NCBI GenBank assembly: GCA_032185465.1
Contig: GCA_032185465.1_4549.1
Direction: 5' to 3' (one strand)
Source: a phage
Length of the DNA stretch: 40,535 bases
Made by a program: the position numbers and the translations under genes. Of this stretch, positions 17,444-40,535 are shown piece after piece. Numbering within the stretch: position 1 is the stretch's first letter; each line of letters starts with the position of its first letter. Under the pieces are notes generated by a model. That model saw only the letters and a list, made by a program, of their open reading frames with translations. It was not told where the DNA came from and did no database searches.

Positions 17444-20125
17444 TTAAGCGAATGCAAAGTCTGAAGACAAGATGTCTTCGATATTCAGTTTACCTTTCTT
17501 CGGAAGCTCAGGCAACTTGTCGCGCTGACTTTCATGAAGCTGGTATTCAAACTGCTCGTAGAAGTCAAGCAGCACATCGTTATCGCGGTAAGTCTCTACC
17601 ATCGTCTCACGGACGCCACGGAACAGATACTCAGCGTCAGCCGGGATGGTCCCGAAGCTATCGTGAATCACTGCGAATGACATCACGCCATACTTTCGGT
17701 GAGTGTGGACTACAGTCTTGCGGAGGTGGCTACCATCTTGTGAGTGGACGAAGTTCGGGCTAATGCCTGACTCCTGCTTGTGCTTGTCCAGCTCTTTCTT
17801 CGTACCTTTGTTGACCGTAGGTTGAAGGTTGAAGGACCCTAAGAACATCAGGTTCAGACGAGTGGTATCCTTCTTGCGGTATTCCTGCCAGACCGGGAAC
17901 CCATCAGGTGTGACCCAGTGTACCGGAAGGCATGGCTTCAGGATTTCACCAGTCTTCTTGTCCTTCACTTCAGCAGCCAGCAGCTTGGCGGCACCTTGAA
18001 GCCACTTCATCGCGTCAACCGCAGCAACTACTGTCACACTCACAGCTTCCCAAATCATCTTAGCCATGAAGCGAGACGCTTGGCTTGGCTCGGTGAACAT
18101 TGCTCCCTTACCGGAGTCAATCGCTGGCATCACGGTGTCTTCGAACACTTGGTCGGCGAACCCATACTCTTTCGACCCGTAGGCCAGAGTCATGACCGAG
18201 CGCTTAGTGACCGAGCGAGACATACCGAATTGCAGCCACTGACGCGCAAGACTCTTGGTCCCAAGCTTCAGGCGTTCGCTGATTTCCCCAGTCTTCTTGT
18301 CCTCTACGGTCACCAGCTCGTCGTCCGTACCGCTCAGTAATAGCTCTTTCAACTGGTCTGACACACGGTCTGAGACTATACGGTAGATGTCCTGCACCTG
18401 ACCAGACGGCGTTAAGTTCACTGCATGTCCGCCTACGTGGTCCCTCAGCATCGCGCTGAAGTGCTGAATCCCCGAACACGAGCCGTCGAAGGCAATCGGA
18501 AGTGAGCAATTGTAGGTCAAGCCATGGTTCATCACCCCAGAATACTCGAAGCAAGCCGCTAGGAAGCAGAAGGGGCTGTCCATACTCCCCCACCACTCGA
18601 TGCTGTCCATCGGTGATTTGGCTGCTGCCAGAATGTTCTCGTGATTGTCTTCCACCCATTTGATACGCTCCTCAAAGGTTACCTTATCGACACCCGCGCA
18701 GTTGGCGGTGTGGACTTTAAGCCATTTGAAACCATCCGCCCCGATAGGCTTTCCGACCGCCAGAGTCAGTAGACCCTTCTGCATGTCGTTACCCTGAGGG
18801 TTGAACATCGGGACAGCGTAGACACGACCTCGCCAATCCATGTTGTACGGGAACCAGATGGCCTTAAACTGTGAGAACTTGTTGGCCTGTGATACGATGA
18901 AACTCATGGACAATCTGCGTGACTGTCTGGCCTTCTCGCGGCGATAGATACCAGCAGCAGCCTTCTTCCATGCCTTGAGTTCCTCCTCGGTTTCACCAGA
19001 ATAGTCCTCAGGCTTCAGCGGTTCCATCTGAGGGATGTCATCAATAGGCGTGTTGTTCAGCTTCTCGACCATGTTCACCACGTCCAGAACCTTCTTGTTA
19101 ACTTTCCAAGGTGTATTCTGAATGATGTTCACAGCGTCATAGACTTCAGGCATGTATACGTCTTCATAACGTGCTACCGCAGACTTAGACCCTAAGCGAA
19201 TCAATGGTAACGGTCTGCGACCTTTGGCCCAGTACCCACCACCTACGACACCAGTCCACGGCTTAGGTGGAACGACGCAAGGCTGGTAGACTGGAGCGAT
19301 ACCCGCAAGGCTGAATCCTCGTTGTGCCATCTTCTTGACCCAGAAGTCTGACAGGTGGACCATCTCTACGTCAGCCGCTGCATTACCAGCACCGTACCGC
19401 TTAAGCTCGACCAGTTGTGTTGACTGGATGACAATCTCGAGCATCTTGATGCCAACGTGGACAGCCTCTGTAGGACTCCAAGTCCCCCATGCATCTTCCA
19501 GTTGGCCTTGCTCCAGCATGGACGCCTCGACCGCTTGCATGTAGGCTTTCTTGTAGGATGCCCCAGCTCGCTTGTTCAGGTTCTCAGCTATCGCCTTCTT
19601 GAAGTGCTCCTTCTCTTTGTCACGGATGCGACCGAAGCGGATTTCGTCCTCAAGTGTGCGACCTATCGCGGAGGCCATCGGTGTAATCGGTATCCCTTCA
19701 GGCTTGACCAGCTTGGAGAGTATGACCTTCAGTATGATAACCGCAGCGGACTCACAGGAGATGCGCATAGAGCGGTCCTTTACGGCCTTCTCTTCAGTGC
19801 TCAACATGGTGAACGCTACGCTAGGACGCGAGGTTGACAGCTTCCCGTCTAGGCCTTCGTGCCACTCCCTGACGGCTTGCGCAATCTTAGGGACCAGAGT
19901 CTGCATCAAAGGCTTGGCGACCTGATTGTCTGCCAGTTCCCCGCGCTCAGTCTGCCGCTCAAGGTTCTTGATGAAACGTCGCTCGCCTTCTGTATATGCC
20001 TCATGCTCAAGCTGAAGCTGTTTGACTGCAAGGTCTTGCCCGTAGTGGTCAGCCAGCAGGTTAAACGGCTCAATGGCGTTCGACACATCAGAGAAGTCGT
20101 GTTTGTCAATAGAGATGACGCTCAT
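17444..20125 (-). CDS. T7-type single-subunit DNA-directed RNA polymerase, gp1-like
   Basis: 893 aa; near full-length colinearity with T7 RNAP (KARKSRR, WFPYNMDWRGRVYA, LPLAFDGSCSGIQHFSAMLRD, VTKRSVMTLAYGSKEFGF, PNFVHSQDGSHLRKTVV, HDSFGT, C-terminal FAFA). Confidence 0.98.
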   Translation of the reverse strand: MSVISIDKHDFSDVSNAIEPFNLLADHYGQDLAVKQLQLEHEAYTEGERRFIKNLERQTERGELADNQVAKPLMQTLVPKIAQAVREWHEGLDGKLSTSRPSVAFTMLSTEEKAVKDRSMRISCESAAVIILKVILSKLVKPEGIPITPMASAIGRTLEDEIRFGRIRDKEKEHFKKAIAENLNKRAGASYKKAYMQAVEASMLEQGQLEDAWGTWSPTEAVHVGIKMLEIVIQSTQLVELKRYGAGNAAADVEMVHLSDFWVKKMAQRGFSLAGIAPVYQPCVVPPKPWTGVVGGGYWAKGRRPLPLIRLGSKSAVARYEDVYMPEVYDAVNIIQNTPWKVNKKVLDVVNMVEKLNNTPIDDIPQMEPLKPEDYSGETEEELKAWKKAAAGIYRREKARQSRRLSMSFIVSQANKFSQFKAIWFPYNMDWRGRVYAVPMFNPQGNDMQKGLLTLAVGKPIGADGFKWLKVHTANCAGVDKVTFEERIKWVEDNHENILAAAKSPMDSIEWWGSMDSPFCFLAACFEYSGVMNHGLTYNCSLPIAFDGSCSGIQHFSAMLRDHVGGHAVNLTPSGQVQDIYRIVSDRVSDQLKELLLSGTDDELVTVEDKKTGEISERLKLGTKSLARQWLQFGMSRSVTKRSVMTLAYGSKEYGFADQVFEDTVMPAIDSGKGAMFTEPSQASRFMAKMIWEAVSVTVVAAVDAMKWLQGAAKLLAAEVKDKKTGEILKPCLPVHWVTPDGFPVWQEYRKKDTTRLNLMFLGSFNLQPTVNKGTKKELDKHKQESGISPNFVHSQDGSHLRKTVVHTHRKYGVMSFAVIHDSFGTIPADAEYLFRGVRETMVETYRDNDVLLDFYEQFEYQLHESQRDKLPELPKKGKLNIEDILSSDFAFA

Positions 20126-20194: not shown

Positions 20195-20217
20195 GAGTCC
20201 TATAGTGATAGTTAAGT
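20195..20217 (-). promoter_or_regulatory. phage RNAP promoter immediately upstream of the RNAP gene: ACTTAACTATCACTATAGGACTC
   Basis: Near-consensus promoter whose +1 lies about 75 nt upstream of the RNAP ATG; the leader carries a direct repeat gtctttcactt(a/g)gagtct. Confidence 0.7.
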
Positions 20218-20985: not shown

Positions 20986-21213
20986 TTACTCGCCGTCTCC
21001 TTCTGTAAGGCTATCGTCTATTAATTCAAATTTACCGTTTGAGTGTTGGATAGCCTCTTGTCCGCAATGGTCGCAAACCACCAGTTTATCGAACCCGTCA
21101 AACTCGTCACCTGCTACGCAAGAAAGTACGAATTTATGATTGGTGCATACTTCTTGCGTTTCACCGAAAATTGCTCGAAAACCTTTGGTTATGGCACCAG
21201 TGATTGTGTTCAT
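20986..21213 (-). CDS. hypothetical early protein, 75 aa, putative zinc ribbon (C-X7-C ... C-X2-C)
   Basis: ATG at 21213, preceded by the duplicated 70-bp leader element; four Cys arranged as a possible zinc ribbon. Confidence 0.55.
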   Translation of the reverse strand: MNTITGAITKGFRAIFGETQEVCTNHKFVLSCVAGDEFDGFDKLVVCDHCGQEAIQHSNGKFELIDDSLTEGDGE

Positions 21214-21218
21214 ATCTT

Positions 21219-21289
21219 CCCTCTCAGTTGTTAATGACTATCAGTCAGGGCCTTCAGATGTAGACTCAAAGACCCTGTAGTTAATCACT
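21219..21289 (-). repeat. 70-bp conserved leader element, copy 2 (putative RNase III hairpin upstream of second early gene)
   Basis: 69/70 identical to 22041-22110; RNA folds with stem CAGGGUCUU/AAGGCCCUG. Confidence 0.6.
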
Positions 21290-21525
21290 ATCGCTAGCAA
21301 GTATCGCGCTTCATCATCTCGTAGCACCCGTCGTAGAACGCTTGTTCGCTGCTATAAGTTATCTGGTGCATTGTTGGTTATCCTCATCGTGTAAGCTGTC
21401 GTGTATACGCTTGCGGCCCTCGTAGACCGCTTTCAGGTGACGCATAGTCGCATCGTGGTTTAACTGCCCGGTCTTGACCATAAGTCGGGCGTTGGTGACG
21501 TGGTGCTGGCATAAACCGTAAGTTA

Positions 21526-22032
21526 TCATCGCTCGCAGTCCTCAGCCGCAGGGTCGAACACTACGTTATCATTGATGTCTTCCACCTTCAGGTGGCGACC
21601 TGCCGCATAGTTAACCTTGGCACATGCAGTAGCAACCTCAAGAGCTACAGCTTGCACAATTATTGCGCCTGTTTTAGCGTCAACTACCCAATATTCATCC
21701 TCTTCGTCTGCCTCTTCATCCTCAAACCAGACTACATCCAAGCCATTAGACACATCGTTATAAAGCGCCTCATAGATGCGAGCTTGTAGGATACGCGTTA
21801 CGTCCTTGGTTTCAGGCATCATCCCAGAGTCTTCGAACTCGTGGTCTATACCATCAGCAGCCATCACCGTAAAAATCTCGTGGTAATAGTGCGGAACTTG
21901 ACCGTCTACGGCCTCATGCAGCGCATCGCTGTAGTCATCATCTTGAGTCAGGTGGTAGTACTGAATACGCTCGATAAATGCCTCAACGGTTGCAGCCAGC
22001 AGCTCATAGTATGCGTTAGCGTTACGTTCCAT
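21526..22032 (-). CDS. ocr: Ocr-like anti-restriction DNA-mimic protein (gp0.3) with about 50-aa C-terminal extension
   Basis: 168 aa; [45 protein letters not shown] colinear with T7 Ocr, acidic stretch follows; first gene after the host-type promoters. Confidence 0.85.
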
Positions 22033-22040
22033 AGTTATAT

Positions 22041-22110
22041 CCTCTCAGTTGTTAGTGACTATCAGTCAGGGCCTTCAGATGTAGACTCAAAGACCCTGTA
22101 GTTAATCACT
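22041..22110 (-). repeat. 70-bp conserved leader element, copy 1 (R0.3-like hairpin upstream of ocr)
   Basis: Same element as 21219-21289; the preceding GCTCTTTAACAATCTGG block (minus strand) is conserved with the T7 early leader as I recall it. Confidence 0.6.
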
Positions 22111-22226
22111 GTCGGCGCACATTAAGAGTTTATCCAGATTGTTAAAGAGCATTCCCTTCAGTCAGAGGACTTCAGGTAGACCGTTTCAGTGTTGGTCGTC
22201 ACCGTTGTTTCGTGTTGATGTGGTAC

Positions 22227-22256
22227 ATACTACTTTAAGTCGGTACATCTTGTCAA
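22227..22256 (-). promoter_or_regulatory. host sigma70-type early promoter (T7 A2/A3-like): TTGACA-18-TAGTAT
   Basis: Minus strand TTGACAAGATGTACCGACTTAAAGTAGTATGTACCACAT; the -10/+1 context GTACCACAT matches recalled T7 A3. Confidence 0.55.
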
Positions 22257-22368
22257 CTACTTTCTGTCATCTGCCTGTTGTTCGTATGACTTATCAGGCT
22301 GTCTACTTAACCGGGATGACCCGGCGTCTTCACTATCCGGTTGTTGCCGTGTCGTGTTGACGGAAGCT

Positions 22369-22397
22369 ATTAAGCCATAGTCTGGACCTGTAGTCAA
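22369..22397 (-). promoter_or_regulatory. candidate host sigma70-type early promoter (A1 position): TTGACT-17-CTTAAT
   Basis: Perfect -35, weak -10; followed by CCGGTTAAGTAGACAGCCTGATAAGTC, nearly identical to the recalled T7 post-A1 region. Confidence 0.4.
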
Positions 22398-22554
22398 TAG
22401 GTAATCTTAAATAATATTGATTAAGCTATCGTCGGCCCCATAGTGACTAAGAGGATATAGTCTTTGACTAACATGTTTAAGACCTTAAGTCTATAGCTTT
22501 GTGTCTATTAACTGTGGGTCTATGACCGTAGGTGTTGGTGTCTTATGGTTGATA

Positions 22555-22645
22555 CTGTAGGTTAGTTAGACTGTAGGTTGTAGGACTGTAGGTTGTAGGA
22601 CTGTAGGTTGTAGGACTGTAGGTTGTAGGACTGTAGGTTGTAGGA
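22555..22645. repeat. tandem array: 5 perfect copies of 15-bp unit ctgtaggttgtagga plus one degenerate copy
   Basis: Direct reading of 22555-22645; lies just inside the left genome end, like the short repeats next to the T7 terminal repeat. Confidence 0.9.
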
Positions 22646-22649
22646 CCTA

Positions 22650-22867
22650 TGGTTATACAGATAGAGACTCAGAGACAGACCCATAGCCCCTACCTATCGT
22701 CCTGACCTCCAGCCATAGCCTAGACCTATCGTTGACCTAACGTCTTGACCATCGGTCCAACCTTATGATAGACTGGCTGTGACTGCAAGGAGTAGTAACG
22801 GGTAGGGCCTTTGGTCTTGACTTAAAGAGGGCCTATGGGGGAGACTTGAGGTTATTGAACTGTGAGA
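22650..22867 (-). repeat. candidate genome left terminus and direct terminal repeat (concatemer junction near 22867)
   Basis: Minus strand from 22867 reads TCTCACAGTTCAATAACCTCAAGTCTCCCCCATAGGCCCTCTTTAAG, matching the conserved T7/T3 left-end sequence as I recall it. Repeat length and inner boundary are not determinable here. Confidence 0.4.
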
Positions 22868-23106
22868 TGTGGTCTCAAACTTTTGGTCCAAAACTCATCG
22901 TCACTACTGTAGGCCACAGCTACTGTAGGTCAAGGACCGTAGGTCAGGCGACACTAGGATAGACCAATAAGTAGGATGACCCTAAGTGAGCTTCTATTAA
23001 GGTGTTACCTAAAGTCCTTGACTACAGTAGCTAAGGTCAGTAGAGTGAGTCTTTATCCACGTACTGACCTTAGGTCTTCCGCTCATGAATCGTTACCATG
23101 ATTGCG

Positions 23107-23265
23107 TTAATTACACTGAGACACCAGAGAACATACGAGAGTCTCGACCCACCCGACCCACTTACTTCCAGCAGTAACGCCAGCAGCAAGTAGAACAGCA
23201 GCAAGAAACCTGTATGTAGCTCGATTGGTCGCCAGAGCTTTAAGTACAGCTTTGGTCTTTGCCAT
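23107..23265 (-). CDS. small hydrophobic protein, 52 aa (gene 19.5 position)
   Basis: MAKTKAVLKALATNRATYRFLAAVLLAAGVTAGSKWVGWVETLVCSLVSQCN; ATG with GGAGGT upstream, downstream of the phiOR-like promoter. Below the ORF-track cutoff. Confidence 0.45.
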   Translation of the reverse strand: MAKTKAVLKALATNRATYRFLAAVLLAAGVTAGSKWVGWVETLVCSLVSQCN

Positions 23266-23562: not shown

Positions 23563-25329
23563 CTAGTGGAACGTAACGTAGGACCCTAGTCCCAGCTCGT
23601 CGTCCGTATCGTGAGTTACCCGGACCCCATTGTCCCAGAACTCAGTGTGGATGGACTCGAAGCCTTTCCGTGGGTTCTCCATCTGTTCCTCCAGCCACTC
23701 CTCAGTGACTTCACGTTCGCCTTTGTTGGCATCCTTAGCCATAGACTCAACGAAGAACTGCACACCGATAGCCAGCGCATCAAGTCGGTCATCGTGTGCC
23801 AATGCTCCACGTTCACGAGAGATACGTGTCATCTGGTAGAAGAGAGAGTAGATAGGATTACGAACACCATCCTTATCAGAGGCAGACTGGTAATCTTGGA
23901 CGATAGCAGCAGCGTTAACGATAAGTCGGTGAGACCCCATGATAGGCTCCAGAACGTCACAGATGCGGAGTTCCTTCTGACCCTTACTCTTCACTTCAGT
24001 TACAGCAGCAGGATGAATACGGGAAGCTACAGGCTTGAATAGCTCAAGGTACATACCATCACCGAAGTTACCCTCAATGACGTATTCGTTGACCTTCCAC
24101 TTACGACCAATCTTAGCCAAGGCTTCCAGCGTAGAGTCTTCATAGCCACCTCGCATACCGCCAACTTCCATAGCGAAGATGTAGCCGTTTAGCTGGTACA
24201 GTACCGCATAACCAGTTTCATCCTTACCACGACCACTAGGGTCAATGACTAGAATCTTCTGGGTGTATGAGCTGAAGGCAGAACCTACAGTCTGATACGT
24301 GTGGTATGAGTCACCCATGAGTCCAACGTTAGGAACGTCCTCACGCTTGTTCTGAGGGTTAGGAAGCCATTGGTATATCATTGGGCTAGACGCTTGGTCC
24401 AAGTCTGCTACGATAAGGTCACGGAGCTTCAGAGGGTACTTCTCGGCATCACTCAGGTTAGGGTTAAGCATGAACTGTAGAGCGAAGCCAGCTTTGCCAT
24501 AGGACAACTCACGTTCCTTCAGGTCCGTATCATCGAATCGTACTTCATCGGTAGGACGCCAGTAGAAGGACTCAGGGTCCTCTTCCAGCTCTGCCTGAAG
24601 CATAGGAGCCAGACGGTCGCCGTAAGACTGCCAGTCCTTCTTATCACGTGGATAACGAGCAGGCCAGATAGTAGTGGTGTATCCACGGCCTTCCAGCTCA
24701 CGATACAAGGTCATCTCATTCTGAGGAGTACCCAGATAGATGATTGTACCTCCCGGCTTCAGGATAGCGTCGAACTCTTTCACAAGCTCTGACAGACGGT
24801 CTCGTGCGGCCTGAGTCGCTGAGTTGTTCGGAACCTCCACGTCATCAGCAATCAGGATGTCAGCACGACTACCAGTCAGCTGACCAGTGATACCAACGGA
24901 CTTAACCGAAGGTGAGTGGTCTGGCTTAGCTGGCCCAACGTCAAAGCTGATAACAGCATCTCGCTGCCCCTGCTTAGGTTTGAGTTCCTGAAGCTGAGGC
25001 ATGAGGTCGATGATTCGCTTGATGAAGATGGAGTTCGCATCGGCTCGTTCCTTTGAGGCCGACACAATCATGAACTTCAAGTCTGGGTTGTTCCATAGCT
25101 TCCAGACCACAAAGCCACAGGTCAGAAACGACTTGCCAATACCACGGAAAGCCTGAAGGATGAAGCGGCGATTATCACCAGCAGCCAGCTTCTTACACAT
25201 ATCTATCTGGCAGCGGGTTGGAACCGGAAGGCTTAGTGCTTTCCAGAGAACGAAGATGAAGAACACGAAGTCGTCCCTCATCCTTTGGGTCATTTCTGCC
25301 TGTCTTTCAGCAGGTGTTTTCTTAGACAT
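23563..25329 (-). CDS. terminase large subunit, gp19-like
   Basis: 588 aa; near full-length colinearity with T7 gp19 ([116 protein letters not shown]). Confidence 0.98.
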
Positions 25330-25759
25330 AGAGTCCCTCCAGCATTAGGTCCCGGACAGCGATAGCCTCCTCTAGAGTGGGACGTGTTGTGCGCATATAG
25401 ACATTCCCGCGTTTAACCTGAATCCTATAACCATTCTGGTGACGGGTAACGCACTTCACTCCAGTCTTAGAGTCATAATGGCTACCAGTATTCCAAGTGT
25501 TTTCGGCGGCAGTAACGAGCCGTAAGTTACTTAAGGTATTATTGATGGGGTTCCTGTCGATGTGGTCTATTTGCATACCATGCGGTATAGGACCATTGGT
25601 TAGTTCCCATATCACACGGTGTGCCCGCTTACTGCCTAGACTTCGTGTCTGTACTATCCAATATCCCATCCGACTTAATGTCCCCACAGGCTTTCCAGTC
25701 CTAACGGAGACCAGACCGGAGGGACTCGCCGGGTCCACTTTGTAGTAATCACTTAACAC
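25322..25759 (-). CDS. HNH homing endonuclease with C-terminal AP2-like DNA-binding domain
   Basis: 145 aa; [41 protein letters not shown] then [30 protein letters not shown] start; overlaps the Rz stop and the terminase start. No T7 gene lies between 18.5 and 19. Confidence 0.85.
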
Positions 25760-37596: not shown

Positions 37597-39954
37597 TTAG
37601 ACTGAACGAGCTTTCTTAGCGTATGACGCCTCCCAGCCACAGCCAACGATGGACACTGGGGTAGGATAATCTGACTCTAAGGTTAGACTCGTGGTTAATG
37701 CGTTACCATTCATAGCGAAGCGATACTGCCCGTCACCAATGTTAGTAGTCCCTATGGCTTGCTGACCAAGGGTGTACCCATTAAAGGTGTTAACGAACTC
37801 TCGCTCACCGTTTCTGACAATGAGTCTCAGAGCGCCAGTGTCCTTGTAGTTGACCCAAGCCCGACGAAGCTGTAGACGACCAGTGTCTTCAGACTGAGTG
37901 CCACTATCATCTTCAATCTTAATCAGGAACCGTGAGAACTTGTAGGACATCAGATAGGTCCGCCCGATGAACACTGTACGTCCTGACCAATCGCCGTTGA
38001 GGGTAATCACAGTAGAGATACTGGTCAAGTCCCCAAGGTCCAAATAAGCACCCTGACTGTCAATCAGATAGTACCGACCGGGAGACGGAGCATTACCACC
38101 ATAAGCAGAACCAATGTCAACCGTAGTCTTATAGGTGTCAGCGTTGTATGAGCCAATTGGTATTACCATAGACACCTTGGAGTCAACGTGGAGTCTATAT
38201 GGCTCTAACGGAAAGTCAGTTGCCTCCTTGATGAACTTAAGGTGCTCAAGGTCCACGCCGCCTTGGTGCTGACGAACAATGAACATGGTAGAGCCAATCG
38301 ACGCAGACGCCAGAATCTTATCAGCTTTAGGGAACTCCCAGTGCGACCAAGAGGCTTGAAGCTGTACGCCGTCCTTAAACAAGAACTTGTAGAGGTAGAT
38401 TCGGTTGTATGCACCTGTAGAGTTGACGCAGATGTAGTTCTCAGTCCCTGTCCCCTGAATGTCAAACACCCCGTTAGGGATGTAGGACAATACGTGACCG
38501 GTTGTATCATCAGCATCCTTCACATCAGACACATCAGCTACAGCGAAGTATCGCTTAATGCTGGTGAATGACCCACGAGGAGCTGAGAAGAAGACTGAGC
38601 GTCCTACAGCGAACGGTCTGGCATTATCTCCTAAAGCAAACTCTGAGCCTACATCAAGCTGGATAGACTTCGAGGTAAGGACCCCAGAGCTTGTCATCAC
38701 GAACTGCACCTCATCCGACCAAAGTAGTAGCTGCTCGCTAAACGGAACGGCATACTTAAGGATTGAGATTCGAGGGTGACTTACAGCTACATCAATAGGA
38801 TCAGCATCACTCAGTGTCGCCACACTCTTAGGGAAGAACGCAAAGTAGCTGGCTGAACGGCTCATGATTACGTTCTCACCCGACAAGAACCCTAGCCTGT
38901 TCCTGTAGAAGAACACATCATTAATCGCAGCATCCACGAAGCTAGGCATAGGGTTTGTGTCATCGTTACCAGCACCACGCTTGGACCAATCCAGAGTCTT
39001 GAACTCAAAGGAGCCGTCAGACTGTCTTACCAGAGCATGTGGCATTGTGGTGTTGTCGAACCCAGTGACAACTCCCGGCTCAACTGTCTCCTTCCACGTC
39101 TTAGTGTTGGAGTCATACATCACGTAGTATTCATCGGCGCTACTGTTTGTTTCACCTTGAATCTTAATGATATACCCATTAGGAGCGGCAAGAGGTAGTT
39201 TAGAGATTGTCTGCACAGTGTCTAGGACTGGGCTTATTAGCTGGTTAGCGTAGCCATCCTCCGTCTCCACTGAGTTAATGTCGGTCCCTGAAGGAGCTGT
39301 GATTAGCAGGAAGCCAGACCCAAGGTCAAACGTGAAGGTAGGGTAAGCAGCAACAAGAAGGACTCTCAGAGCTGCCCCAATGGCTTGAGCGTCCACCTTA
39401 GGTGGGTCATTCTCGGCATCATTACCTGCTGGTAGCTTATGCGAGACCTTAACGCCACCGTTGATTCCCACTTTAAGGGTTCGACCATACTGCCCACCAC
39501 GCAGGTTAATTAAAGCTCGTGCTTTGCGGTTATAACCAGAGTGTGACTTCTCGCTTCCACCTTTGACGACAACCTTACGGTTAACGACGAACGTATAGTC
39601 TGCCACGGTAACGACACGGATGTCATCTCGTGGGTTGGAGGACTTAACGTAGTCTACCGCACCGGACACTGAGTATTGATTACCGCTCAAGTCAACTACC
39701 TGAATGTTGGACCCATTGAACACTATATAGTACTGCTCCTGCTCGTCACGATTAATCAGGTGGAACTTAGGGTTGCTCCCAACGTCGATGTTAAGACGTC
39801 GCTTGAAGACTGTAGGTGGACGCTTCTGGAGGCCATCACTCTCTGATGACCAGCAGTTAACCTGTGACTCGCCTTGGTCTGAGAACCTCAGTATGTCAGG
39901 CTGTTGGCTAATGCCACCCTTAAGGTTCTTGATTGATTGAGTAATTAGTGGCAT
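37597..39954 (-). CDS. tail tubular protein B, gp12-like
   Basis: 785 aa; N-terminus SIKNLKGGISQQPDILR and many blocks (NRLGFLSGEN, PIDVAVS, LKYAVPFSEQLL, RAWVNY, IVGCGWE) colinear with T7 gp12. Confidence 0.97.
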   Translation of the reverse strand: MPLITQSIKNLKGGISQQPDILRFSDQGESQVNCWSSESDGLQKRPPTVFKRRLNIDVGSNPKFHLINRDEQEQYYIVFNGSNIQVVDLSGNQYSVSGAVDYVKSSNPRDDIRVVTVADYTFVVNRKVVVKGGSEKSHSGYNRKARALINLRGGQYGRTLKVGINGGVKVSHKLPAGNDAENDPPKVDAQAIGAALRVLLVAAYPTFTFDLGSGFLLITAPSGTDINSVETEDGYANQLISPVLDTVQTISKLPLAAPNGYIIKIQGETNSSADEYYVMYDSNTKTWKETVEPGVVTGFDNTTMPHALVRQSDGSFEFKTLDWSKRGAGNDDTNPMPSFVDAAINDVFFYRNRLGFLSGENVIMSRSASYFAFFPKSVATLSDADPIDVAVSHPRISILKYAVPFSEQLLLWSDEVQFVMTSSGVLTSKSIQLDVGSEFALGDNARPFAVGRSVFFSAPRGSFTSIKRYFAVADVSDVKDADDTTGHVLSYIPNGVFDIQGTGTENYICVNSTGAYNRIYLYKFLFKDGVQLQASWSHWEFPKADKILASASIGSTMFIVRQHQGGVDLEHLKFIKEATDFPLEPYRLHVDSKVSMVIPIGSYNADTYKTTVDIGSAYGGNAPSPGRYYLIDSQGAYLDLGDLTSISTVITLNGDWSGRTVFIGRTYLMSYKFSRFLIKIEDDSGTQSEDTGRLQLRRAWVNYKDTGALRLIVRNGEREFVNTFNGYTLGQQAIGTTNIGDGQYRFAMNGNALTTSLTLESDYPTPVSIVGCGWEASYAKKARSV

Positions 39955-40520
39955 TAGTCTCTCCCAATGTCGGACATCATGTTGTAGCGACCAGTATCCA
40001 TCTCGTATTCCATGACCTGCTGATAGAGTTCTGCTTCCTGCTCACGAAGGTACAGTTCAGACTCTGGGCTACCGAAGAACTTAGCGTTGAACTCACGGCT
40101 AGCTTTAGTGACGATGTAGTCCCTGAAGACCACAGGCATCTCTGAGAATGGCTTCATCTCCACAAGCTCTACCGTGATAGGGTCGGTGAAAGTGGTCGAC
40201 TGAGTGGACAGGTCGTACAGGTATCCACCCATGTTGCTGTAGTAGCTGGTGGCCCCAGCGGTCATTACACGAAGGTATGACGGCAAGAATCGAATCCTAT
40301 TGTCTTGGACATCAGGTGTCAGGACAGCAGCTTCGTTGATGTTAAAGTTCCAGCCTTTAGCTTGGACCTGACGATTGACACGATGCAGGATACGTTGAGC
40401 GTTCGAGACGTCAGCGTTCCCCTCGTCAAGCTGTAGGACTGCTGGTTCACCTATAGCAGCTAACATATCGTTGATGGCATCTAAGTCATCGTTAGCGTTC
40501 AGTGGAATGTATTGAGCCAT
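39954..40520 (-). CDS. tail tubular protein A, gp11-like
   Basis: 188 aa; AINDMLAAIGEPAV, ILHRVNRQVQAKGWNFN, FRDYIVTKASREFNAKFFG, MEYEMD colinear with T7 gp11. AAGGAGG upstream near the window end. Confidence 0.95.
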   Translation of the reverse strand: MAQYIPLNANDDLDAINDMLAAIGEPAVLQLDEGNADVSNAQRILHRVNRQVQAKGWNFNINEAAVLTPDVQDNRIRFLPSYLRVMTAGATSYYSNMGGYLYDLSTQSTTFTDPITVELVEMKPFSEMPVVFRDYIVTKASREFNAKFFGSPESELYLREQEAELYQQVMEYEMDTGRYNMMSDIGRD

Positions 40521-40535
40521 AGGCCCTCCTTAAGC

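Follow-up and report, generated by a model that had tools for sequence, protein, structure and literature searches.

The ends of several T7-like phages have been described, and those of Kayfunavirus are the closest to the region considered here. In K1F, the 178 bp at the left end also close the right end, and the annotated terminal repeats of EcoDS1 (178 bp), SH3 (184 bp) and SH4 (191 bp) start at the same base as that of K1F. Run-off sequencing on virion DNA served to map the repeats of SH3, SH4 and SH5, in a study that cites the K1F repeat as 179 bp (PMC4925675). Mt1B1_P3 and Milel carry exact repeats of 202 bp, and the exact two-ended repeats of K1F, Mt1B1_P3 and Milel, which range from 178 to 202 bp, stop at a homologous position. 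The K1F record (NC_007456) opens with TCTCACAGTTCAAGAACCTCAAGTCT, and TCTCACAG opens the genomes of T7, K11, K1F, EcoDS1, SH3, SH4, Mt1B1_P3 and Milel; T3 and phiYeO3-12 carry TCTCATAG where the others have TCTCACAG. At the other side of the repeat lies the motif ATCTGT(T/A). We compared 12 genomes from five Studiervirinae genera (T7, T3, phiYeO3-12, K11, gh-1 and seven Kayfunavirus genomes, including the one analysed here), with boundaries that were either annotated or derived, and the repeat boundary lies no more than about 4 nt from this motif in all 12, falling exactly before it in eight. The motif reads ATCTGTT in T7, T3, phiYeO3-12 and K11, and ATCTGTA in all Kayfunavirus genomes examined. 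The complex of RNA polymerase (RNAP) and lysozyme that pauses at the junction signal interacts with gp18/gp19, which starts maturation and packaging (PMC3276506). Circular assemblies are also expected to collapse exact terminal repeats to one copy (PMC5000459).

Here, we relate to these systems the region at 22555-22867 of a phage DNA of 40,535 nucleotides (contig GCA_032185465.1_4549.1 of GenBank assembly GCA_032185465.1); we refer to this whole stretch as the window, and all positions are counted from its first letter. Our comparison makes it very probable that the region is a K1F-like concatemer junction within a circularly closed assembly, in which one collapsed repeat of about 205 bp is followed by a short-repeat array. 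The mature virion DNA would be linear, with a direct repeat of about 205 bp at both ends, and the assembler would have merged the two copies, such that the record reads like the replicative concatemer.

Identity of the genome and form of the record

Judged by its sequence, the window is a complete Kayfunavirus genome (K1F-like, T7 family, Studiervirinae) in reverse-complemented and circularly closed form. It shares 90-96% DNA identity with many Kayfunavirus genomes, and all of its long open reading frames (ORFs) lie on the minus strand. The break point of the record lies between the capsid gene (306-1355) and the gene for tail tubular protein A (39954-40520), that is, between genes 10 and 11. 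When the last and first bases are joined, they form one unbroken alignment in 133 relatives (99.4% identity to ZCEC02), and because the joined ends are continuous in these relatives, the window is the whole circularised genome, opened at an arbitrary point. The opening (1-40 / 40500-40535) falls exactly in the T-run of a Tphi-like terminator hairpin between these two genes.

Two proteins expected of T7-like phages with direct terminal repeats (DTRs) are both encoded, namely a T7-type large terminase subunit, gp19 (23563..25329, minus strand; Pfam PF22530, Terminase-T7 RNaseH-like domain, E = 5e-38), and a single-subunit RNAP (17444-20125; Pfam PF00940, E = 4e-105). Next to the terminase gene, the stretch at 25322-25759 (minus strand) is probably a homing endonuclease insertion; the phiYIO1-1 genome likewise carries an HNH gene close to the right end. 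Immediately in front of the polymerase gene is a phage-type promoter (20195-20217, minus strand) that agrees at 23 of 23 positions with one annotated in EcoDS1. T7 has no phage promoter before gene 1, and a phage promoter in this position suggests that Kayfunavirus polymerases may autoregulate the transcription of their own gene. tRNA genes are unusual in T7-like phages, and the window has a tRNA-Thr(CGT)-like gene at 11535-11613 (minus strand), found by both Rfam (36.7 bits) and ARAGORN; a phage promoter lies on one side of it and the primase/helicase gene on the other. At least 10 Kayfunavirus records contain this gene at 100% identity, and their annotations of it vary: tRNA-Thr, tRNA-OTHER, pseudo or none at all.

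Extent and boundaries of the terminal repeat

Read downward from 22867, the minus strand begins TCTCACAGTTCAA, which is the exact opening of K1F, EcoDS1, SH3, SH4 and other records with a two-ended repeat. An earlier note on this DNA, made from the letters alone, had quoted the minus strand from this position as TCTCACAGTTCAATAACCTCAAGTCTCCCCCATAGGCCC, which is indeed what is found there, and had pointed to a likeness to the left ends of T7 and T3. That likeness is real, since T7 opens with TCTCACAGTGTACGGACCTAAAGTTCCCCCATAGG, T3 with TCTCATAGTTCAAGAACCCAAAGTACCCCC and K1F with TCTCACAGTTCAAGAACCTCAAGTCTCCCCATAGG. From 22867, 25 of the first 26 bases match both K1F and EcoDS1, the first nine all match T7, and the conserved TCTCA(C/T)AG... 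start of T7-like DTR genomes is present. We therefore predict by homology that TCTCACAG (22860..22867, minus strand) forms the first eight bases of the mature genome, its left terminus.

A terminus of T7 type could, in principle, be vestigial or coincidental, with a different packaging site or headful packaging placing the physical ends elsewhere. What speaks for such a reading is that TCTCACAG alone, as a signal, does not rise above chance, with two matches in the window against 2.6 expected. The terminal 39-mer, by comparison, occurs once in the window against 0 expected, and it is near-identical to the sequence from base 1 onward in K1F and in eight other Kayfunavirus left ends. Moreover, identity to phages with mapped two-ended repeats amounts to 82-97% over about 205 bp and both flanks, the terminase is of T7 type, and the ends of SH3 and SH4 were mapped experimentally at the matching sequence, all of which argues against ends that lie elsewhere. 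We consider that reading exceedingly improbable, and we return to physical ends at the junction described here.

The collapsed direct terminal repeat, as delimited by homology, extends over about 205 bp (22663..22867, minus strand), with a right boundary placed to within about -1 to +4 bp, and virion DNA would carry this segment at each of its two ends. Within the window, the segment of 204-205 bp is found in one copy; a search for a second copy, at the ends of the window or elsewhere in it, found none. The earlier note had suspected a circularised or concatemer-collapsed assembly in which the terminal repeat stands once, and both the single copy and the contiguity of the window's ends in relatives agree with it. 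Since the repeat of about 205 bp is present once, virion DNA of about 40,740 bp is expected (40,535 + 205). The true genome would start with TCTCACAG (22867) and end in ...GAGTCTCT (22663), and run-off sequencing of virion DNA would be predicted to give the ends ...CTGTGAGA and ...GAGTCTCT.

Both flanks of the repeat are informative. The 80 nt that precede 22867 resemble the unique sequence in front of the right-hand repeat of K1F, Mt1B1_P3 and Milel; downstream, the sequence corresponds to their left ends. These two matches uphold the earlier proposal that the genome ends map inside the window. K1F, Mt1B1_P3, Milel and phiYIO1-1 carry this 80-nt stretch in almost identical form, and the phiYIO1-1 record, in which the repeat also stands once, ends with it. 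The arrangement is the one expected of DTR ends, with the right-end unique region after gene 19.5, then the repeat, then the early region with its host promoters and gene 0.3. A scan of IMG/VR revealed seven further genomes with this sequence at base 1 and again 179-196 bp from the far end; in four of the seven the repeat stops exactly before ATCTGTA, and the 179-191-bp repeats of such IMG/VR isolate genomes share the homologous stop position with K1F, Mt1B1_P3 and Milel. Measured from the A of ATCTGTA, the right boundaries deposited for relatives vary between -1 and +4 nt (K1F at 178, CR44b at +1, SH3 at +4), and it is this scatter that sets the uncertainty of about -1 to +4 nt on the right boundary in the window. 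Relative to K1F, SH3 and ZG49, alignment reveals a 24-nt insertion within the repeat (22777..22800, minus strand) that is common to Mt1B1_P3, Milel and phiYIO1-1, and because of this insertion the repeat measures 205 bp instead of about 180 bp. Also inside the repeat, on the plus strand at 22745-22774, is a leftward sigma-70-like site (TTGACC-18-TAGACT, with a TG upstream) whose position is comparable to that of A0, the leftward promoter annotated within the T3 repeat.

These coordinates bear on the record itself. For comparability with curated Kayfunavirus genomes, it should be reverse-complemented, re-opened at 22867 and given the repeat of about 205 bp at its right end, to a length of about 40.74 kb.

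The junction motif and its surroundings

ATCTGTA (22656..22662, minus strand) adjoins the right end of the repeat and is a predicted concatemer-junction pause motif of class II-like form. It occurs once on the sense strand of the whole 40.5-kb genome, and the 23 nt around it are identical to EcoDS1. The EcoDS1 record labels CTATCTGT as 'concatemeric junction', a label also used in those of K11 and PE3-1. In position, ATCTGTA corresponds to a class II signal, lying in sense orientation immediately to the right of the repeat and downstream of a phiOR equivalent. In sequence, it departs from the strict class II heptamer of T7, which on the non-template strand is ATCTGTT preceded by A, C or T, with pausing or termination 6-8 nt downstream, since the window has T-ATCTGTA, a match at six of seven positions with A at position 7. 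Any base change in the heptamer has been reported to abolish termination by T7 RNAP; for this reason, that ATCTGTA is a pause site for the K1F-type RNAP is something we infer, from its position, orientation and conservation.

The departure at position 7 also lends some weight to another view, in which the ends lie as predicted and ATCTGTA is a cleavage or recognition sequence of the terminase, with no polymerase pause and with packaging initiated independently of transcription. The motif abuts the cut site, so that recognition by a nuclease could explain its conservation, and the T7 form, ATCTGTT, is found at two other places on the sense strand. Against this view, five genera retain the six shared bases along with their orientation and their place just past the repeat, the phiOR upstream is identical to that of EcoDS1 and points across the motif, and the 40.5-kb transcribed strand has ATCTGTA at this one site. 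We regard a terminase recognition sequence as possible but unlikely, and a polymerase pause as the better account.

By analogy with T7 and T3, maturation with such a pause may proceed as follows. On the minus strand, the order is the terminase gene, phiOR, gene 19.5, SRR-like repeats, the repeat from 22867 to 22663, ATCTGTA, an SRL-like array, the host promoters and gene 0.3. Phage RNAP starting at phiOR would cross the junction and pause, together with phage lysozyme, at ATCTGT(T/A) just past the repeat, and the paused complex would engage the terminase gp18/gp19. The terminase would then cut the concatemer to yield the ends, and DNA synthesis would duplicate the single repeat, leaving a copy at both ends.

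The features that flank the junction can be recognized. The predicted phiOR-equivalent promoter for phage RNAP (23446..23468, minus strand) is oriented across the junction, matches phiOR of EcoDS1 at 23 of 23 positions and has 0 mismatches to the promoter consensus of the window itself. Gene 19.5 (23107..23265, minus strand; 52 aa) is the last gene before the right end and has the position of the annotated gp19.5 in EcoDS1, PE3-1 and T7. It is followed by a non-coding, SRR-like right-end unique region of 239 bp between gene 19.5 and the repeat (22868..23106, minus strand). Just after gene 19.5 and some 185 bp before the terminal repeat, two 12-nt arms separated by a 19-nt loop form a perfect inverted repeat (23031-23042 / 23062-23073) that is kept in K1F and may act as an RNA hairpin or in DNA processing. 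We looked for a counterpart in T7, where the inverted repeats of this region are weak and non-homologous, and we make no claim of a hairpin intermediate.

Beyond the array, two early promoters for host RNAP are predicted. The first, A1-like (22361..22397, minus strand), shares 34 of 37 bases with the 'host RNAP promoter' at 469-505 of EcoDS1, and the second, A2-like (22226..22256, minus strand), was found by a sigma-70 scan (TTGACA-18-TAGTAT, 10 of 12 positions) and is identical at 28 of 31 bases to the EcoDS1 host promoter at 609-647. Thus the junction motif, phiOR and two host promoters have 90-100% identity to curated EcoDS1 features. A third host promoter homologous to EcoDS1 764-800 was not found in the window, and an Rfam scan of the junction region gave no matches. 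Between the array and the host promoters, no phiOL was found at up to 3 mismatches to the promoter consensus of the window, and EcoDS1 annotates none; a 'TTAGTCACTATGGGG' stretch near 22445 bears a weak resemblance to phiOL, which we do not claim it to be. Gene 0.3, encoding the Ocr DNA mimic (21526..22032, minus strand; Pfam PF08684 ocr, E = 3e-29), is the first gene after the left end. Its 5' leader (22041-22114) and that of a 75-aa ORF (20986-21213) form a direct repeat of 74 nt (the second copy at 21220-21293) with 97% identity; the fold of this repeat is a long hairpin with interruptions (-27.4 kcal/mol, z = -2.9) that resembles the RNase III site R0.3 annotated in T3.

The earlier note had also counted six tandem copies of a 15-bp unit at 22555-22645, and this count is essentially exact. 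Tandem Repeats Finder (TRF) places an SRL-like array of 6.1 copies of TCCTACAACCTACAG at 22554..22646 (minus strand; period 15, 96% matches, score 163); on that strand, five of the units are perfect TCCTACAACCTACAG copies and one is a variant of 16 bp. It starts about 220 nt beyond TCTCACAG, just past the terminal repeat. Tandem arrays of 14-16-bp units directly follow the junction motif in every Kayfunavirus examined, and both unit and copy number vary among close relatives: the 6.1 copies of 15 bp in the window compare with 7.1 copies of the same 15-bp unit in ZG49, 5.2 of 15 bp in SH3, 4.8 of 16 bp in Mt1B1_P3 and 6.2 of 16 bp, with a CCATAGG core, in PE3-1, and K1F has degenerate copies only. 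At the same position, T7 has arrays of 13-bp period with the core CCTAAAG, which we take to be the SRL region of the T7 sequence paper of Dunn and Studier, SRR being the region on the opposite side of the repeat. The window would be expected to hold 1.8 copies of the core CCTACAGT and holds 14. Eight of the 14 flank the repeat, six on the right, in the array, and two on the left (22906-22913 and 22922-22929), where there are variants as well. Because CCTACAGT copies lie between gene 19.5 and the repeat, this stretch would be the SRR-like counterpart, and short direct repeats with a conserved heptamer core, as in SRL and SRR, are thus found on both sides of the repeat.

Assemblers can err at short perfect tandem repeats beside a collapsed terminal repeat, which raises the prospect that the perfect array is an artefact of assembly or sequencing, its copy number wrongly collapsed or expanded. 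We think this very unlikely, given that ZG49 has the identical unit in 7.1 copies, that related units, in 5-6 copies, occupy the equivalent position in SH3, Mt1B1_P3 and PE3-1, and that an array of 93 bp is shorter than typical reads. As a genuine element, the array is family-typical, fast-evolving, slippage-prone and SRL-like, with nothing special about it, and its structure is one that would expand and contract by slippage. To our knowledge, the function of such short-repeat arrays is not firmly established in T7 or in any T7-like phage, and a search on SRL/SRR function and on T3 pacB found nothing relevant among the papers covered. The arrays on the two flanks most likely serve as spacer or protein-binding context for end formation. 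A more elaborate proposal, which we hold to be rather improbable, is that ATCTGTA is a Kayfunavirus-specific class II signal that co-evolved with the K1F-type RNAP, and that the 14-16-bp arrays, with their CCTACAG or CCATAGG cores, tune pausing or terminase loading, copy number affecting the efficiency of packaging.

Two spurious ORFs run through the array and the terminal repeat (22562-22684, 40 aa, and 22763-22891, 42 aa; both minus strand). The 40-aa ORF is the array translated as (SYNLQ)n, and the 'hypothetical protein' annotations of relatives overlie the same non-coding region. ORFs across 22554-22891, such as that of the tandem array, should stay unannotated.

Relation to known junctions

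The value of these assignments is practical and not conceptual, and they open no new biological question. They illustrate that T7-like termini can be placed within a few bases by sequence, from the TCTCACAG start together with the ATCTGT(T/A) boundary.

With T3 and phiYeO3-12, the window shares the opening TCTCA(C/T)AGTTCAAGAACC, nearly identical over the first 18 nt, as well as ATCTGT after the repeat and a leftward sigma-70-like site within it, comparable to A0 of T3. T3 differs in its TCTCATAG, in reading ATCTGTT and in the other content of its repeat, and the repeats of T3 and phiYeO3-12 are 231-232 bp long. The likeness to T7 encompasses the TCTCACAGT start and the CCCCCATAGG block near it, a repeat that stops directly before ATCTGT, arrays on either flank whose short direct repeats are built on a CCTA-AG heptamer core, and the placement of phiOR upstream of gene 19.5, with host promoters and gene 0.3 downstream. 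However, the terminal repeat of T7 is 160 bp and is followed by ATCTGTT, whereas that of the window is about 205 bp and is followed by ATCTGTA; the T7 core is CCTAAAG with a period of about 13, that of the window CCTACAG with a period of 15; no phiOL is recognizable in the window at up to 3 mismatches; and the interior of the repeat cannot be aligned to T7.

The correspondence is closest with the Kayfunavirus phages K1F, EcoDS1, SH3/SH4/SH5 and CR44b, which have in common with the window the first 26 or more bases (barring base 14), the last bases GAGTCTCT, the CTATCTGTA junction motif, the flanking right-end unique sequence and the layout of phiOR, gene 19.5, host promoters and ocr. The window differs from them in a repeat of about 205 bp against 178-191 bp and at two points of sequence: base 14 is T in place of G, and the C-run is longer by one C. 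Unlike the curated Kayfunavirus records, its record is circularly permuted and reverse-complemented and holds the repeat once. Differences from EcoDS1 and K1F are trivial, consisting of the 24-nt insertion, two point differences near the start and the copy number of the array. Altogether, the flagged region is an ordinary T7-like concatemer junction, of a class that is already well described and whose Kayfunavirus version is curated in EcoDS1 and K1F.
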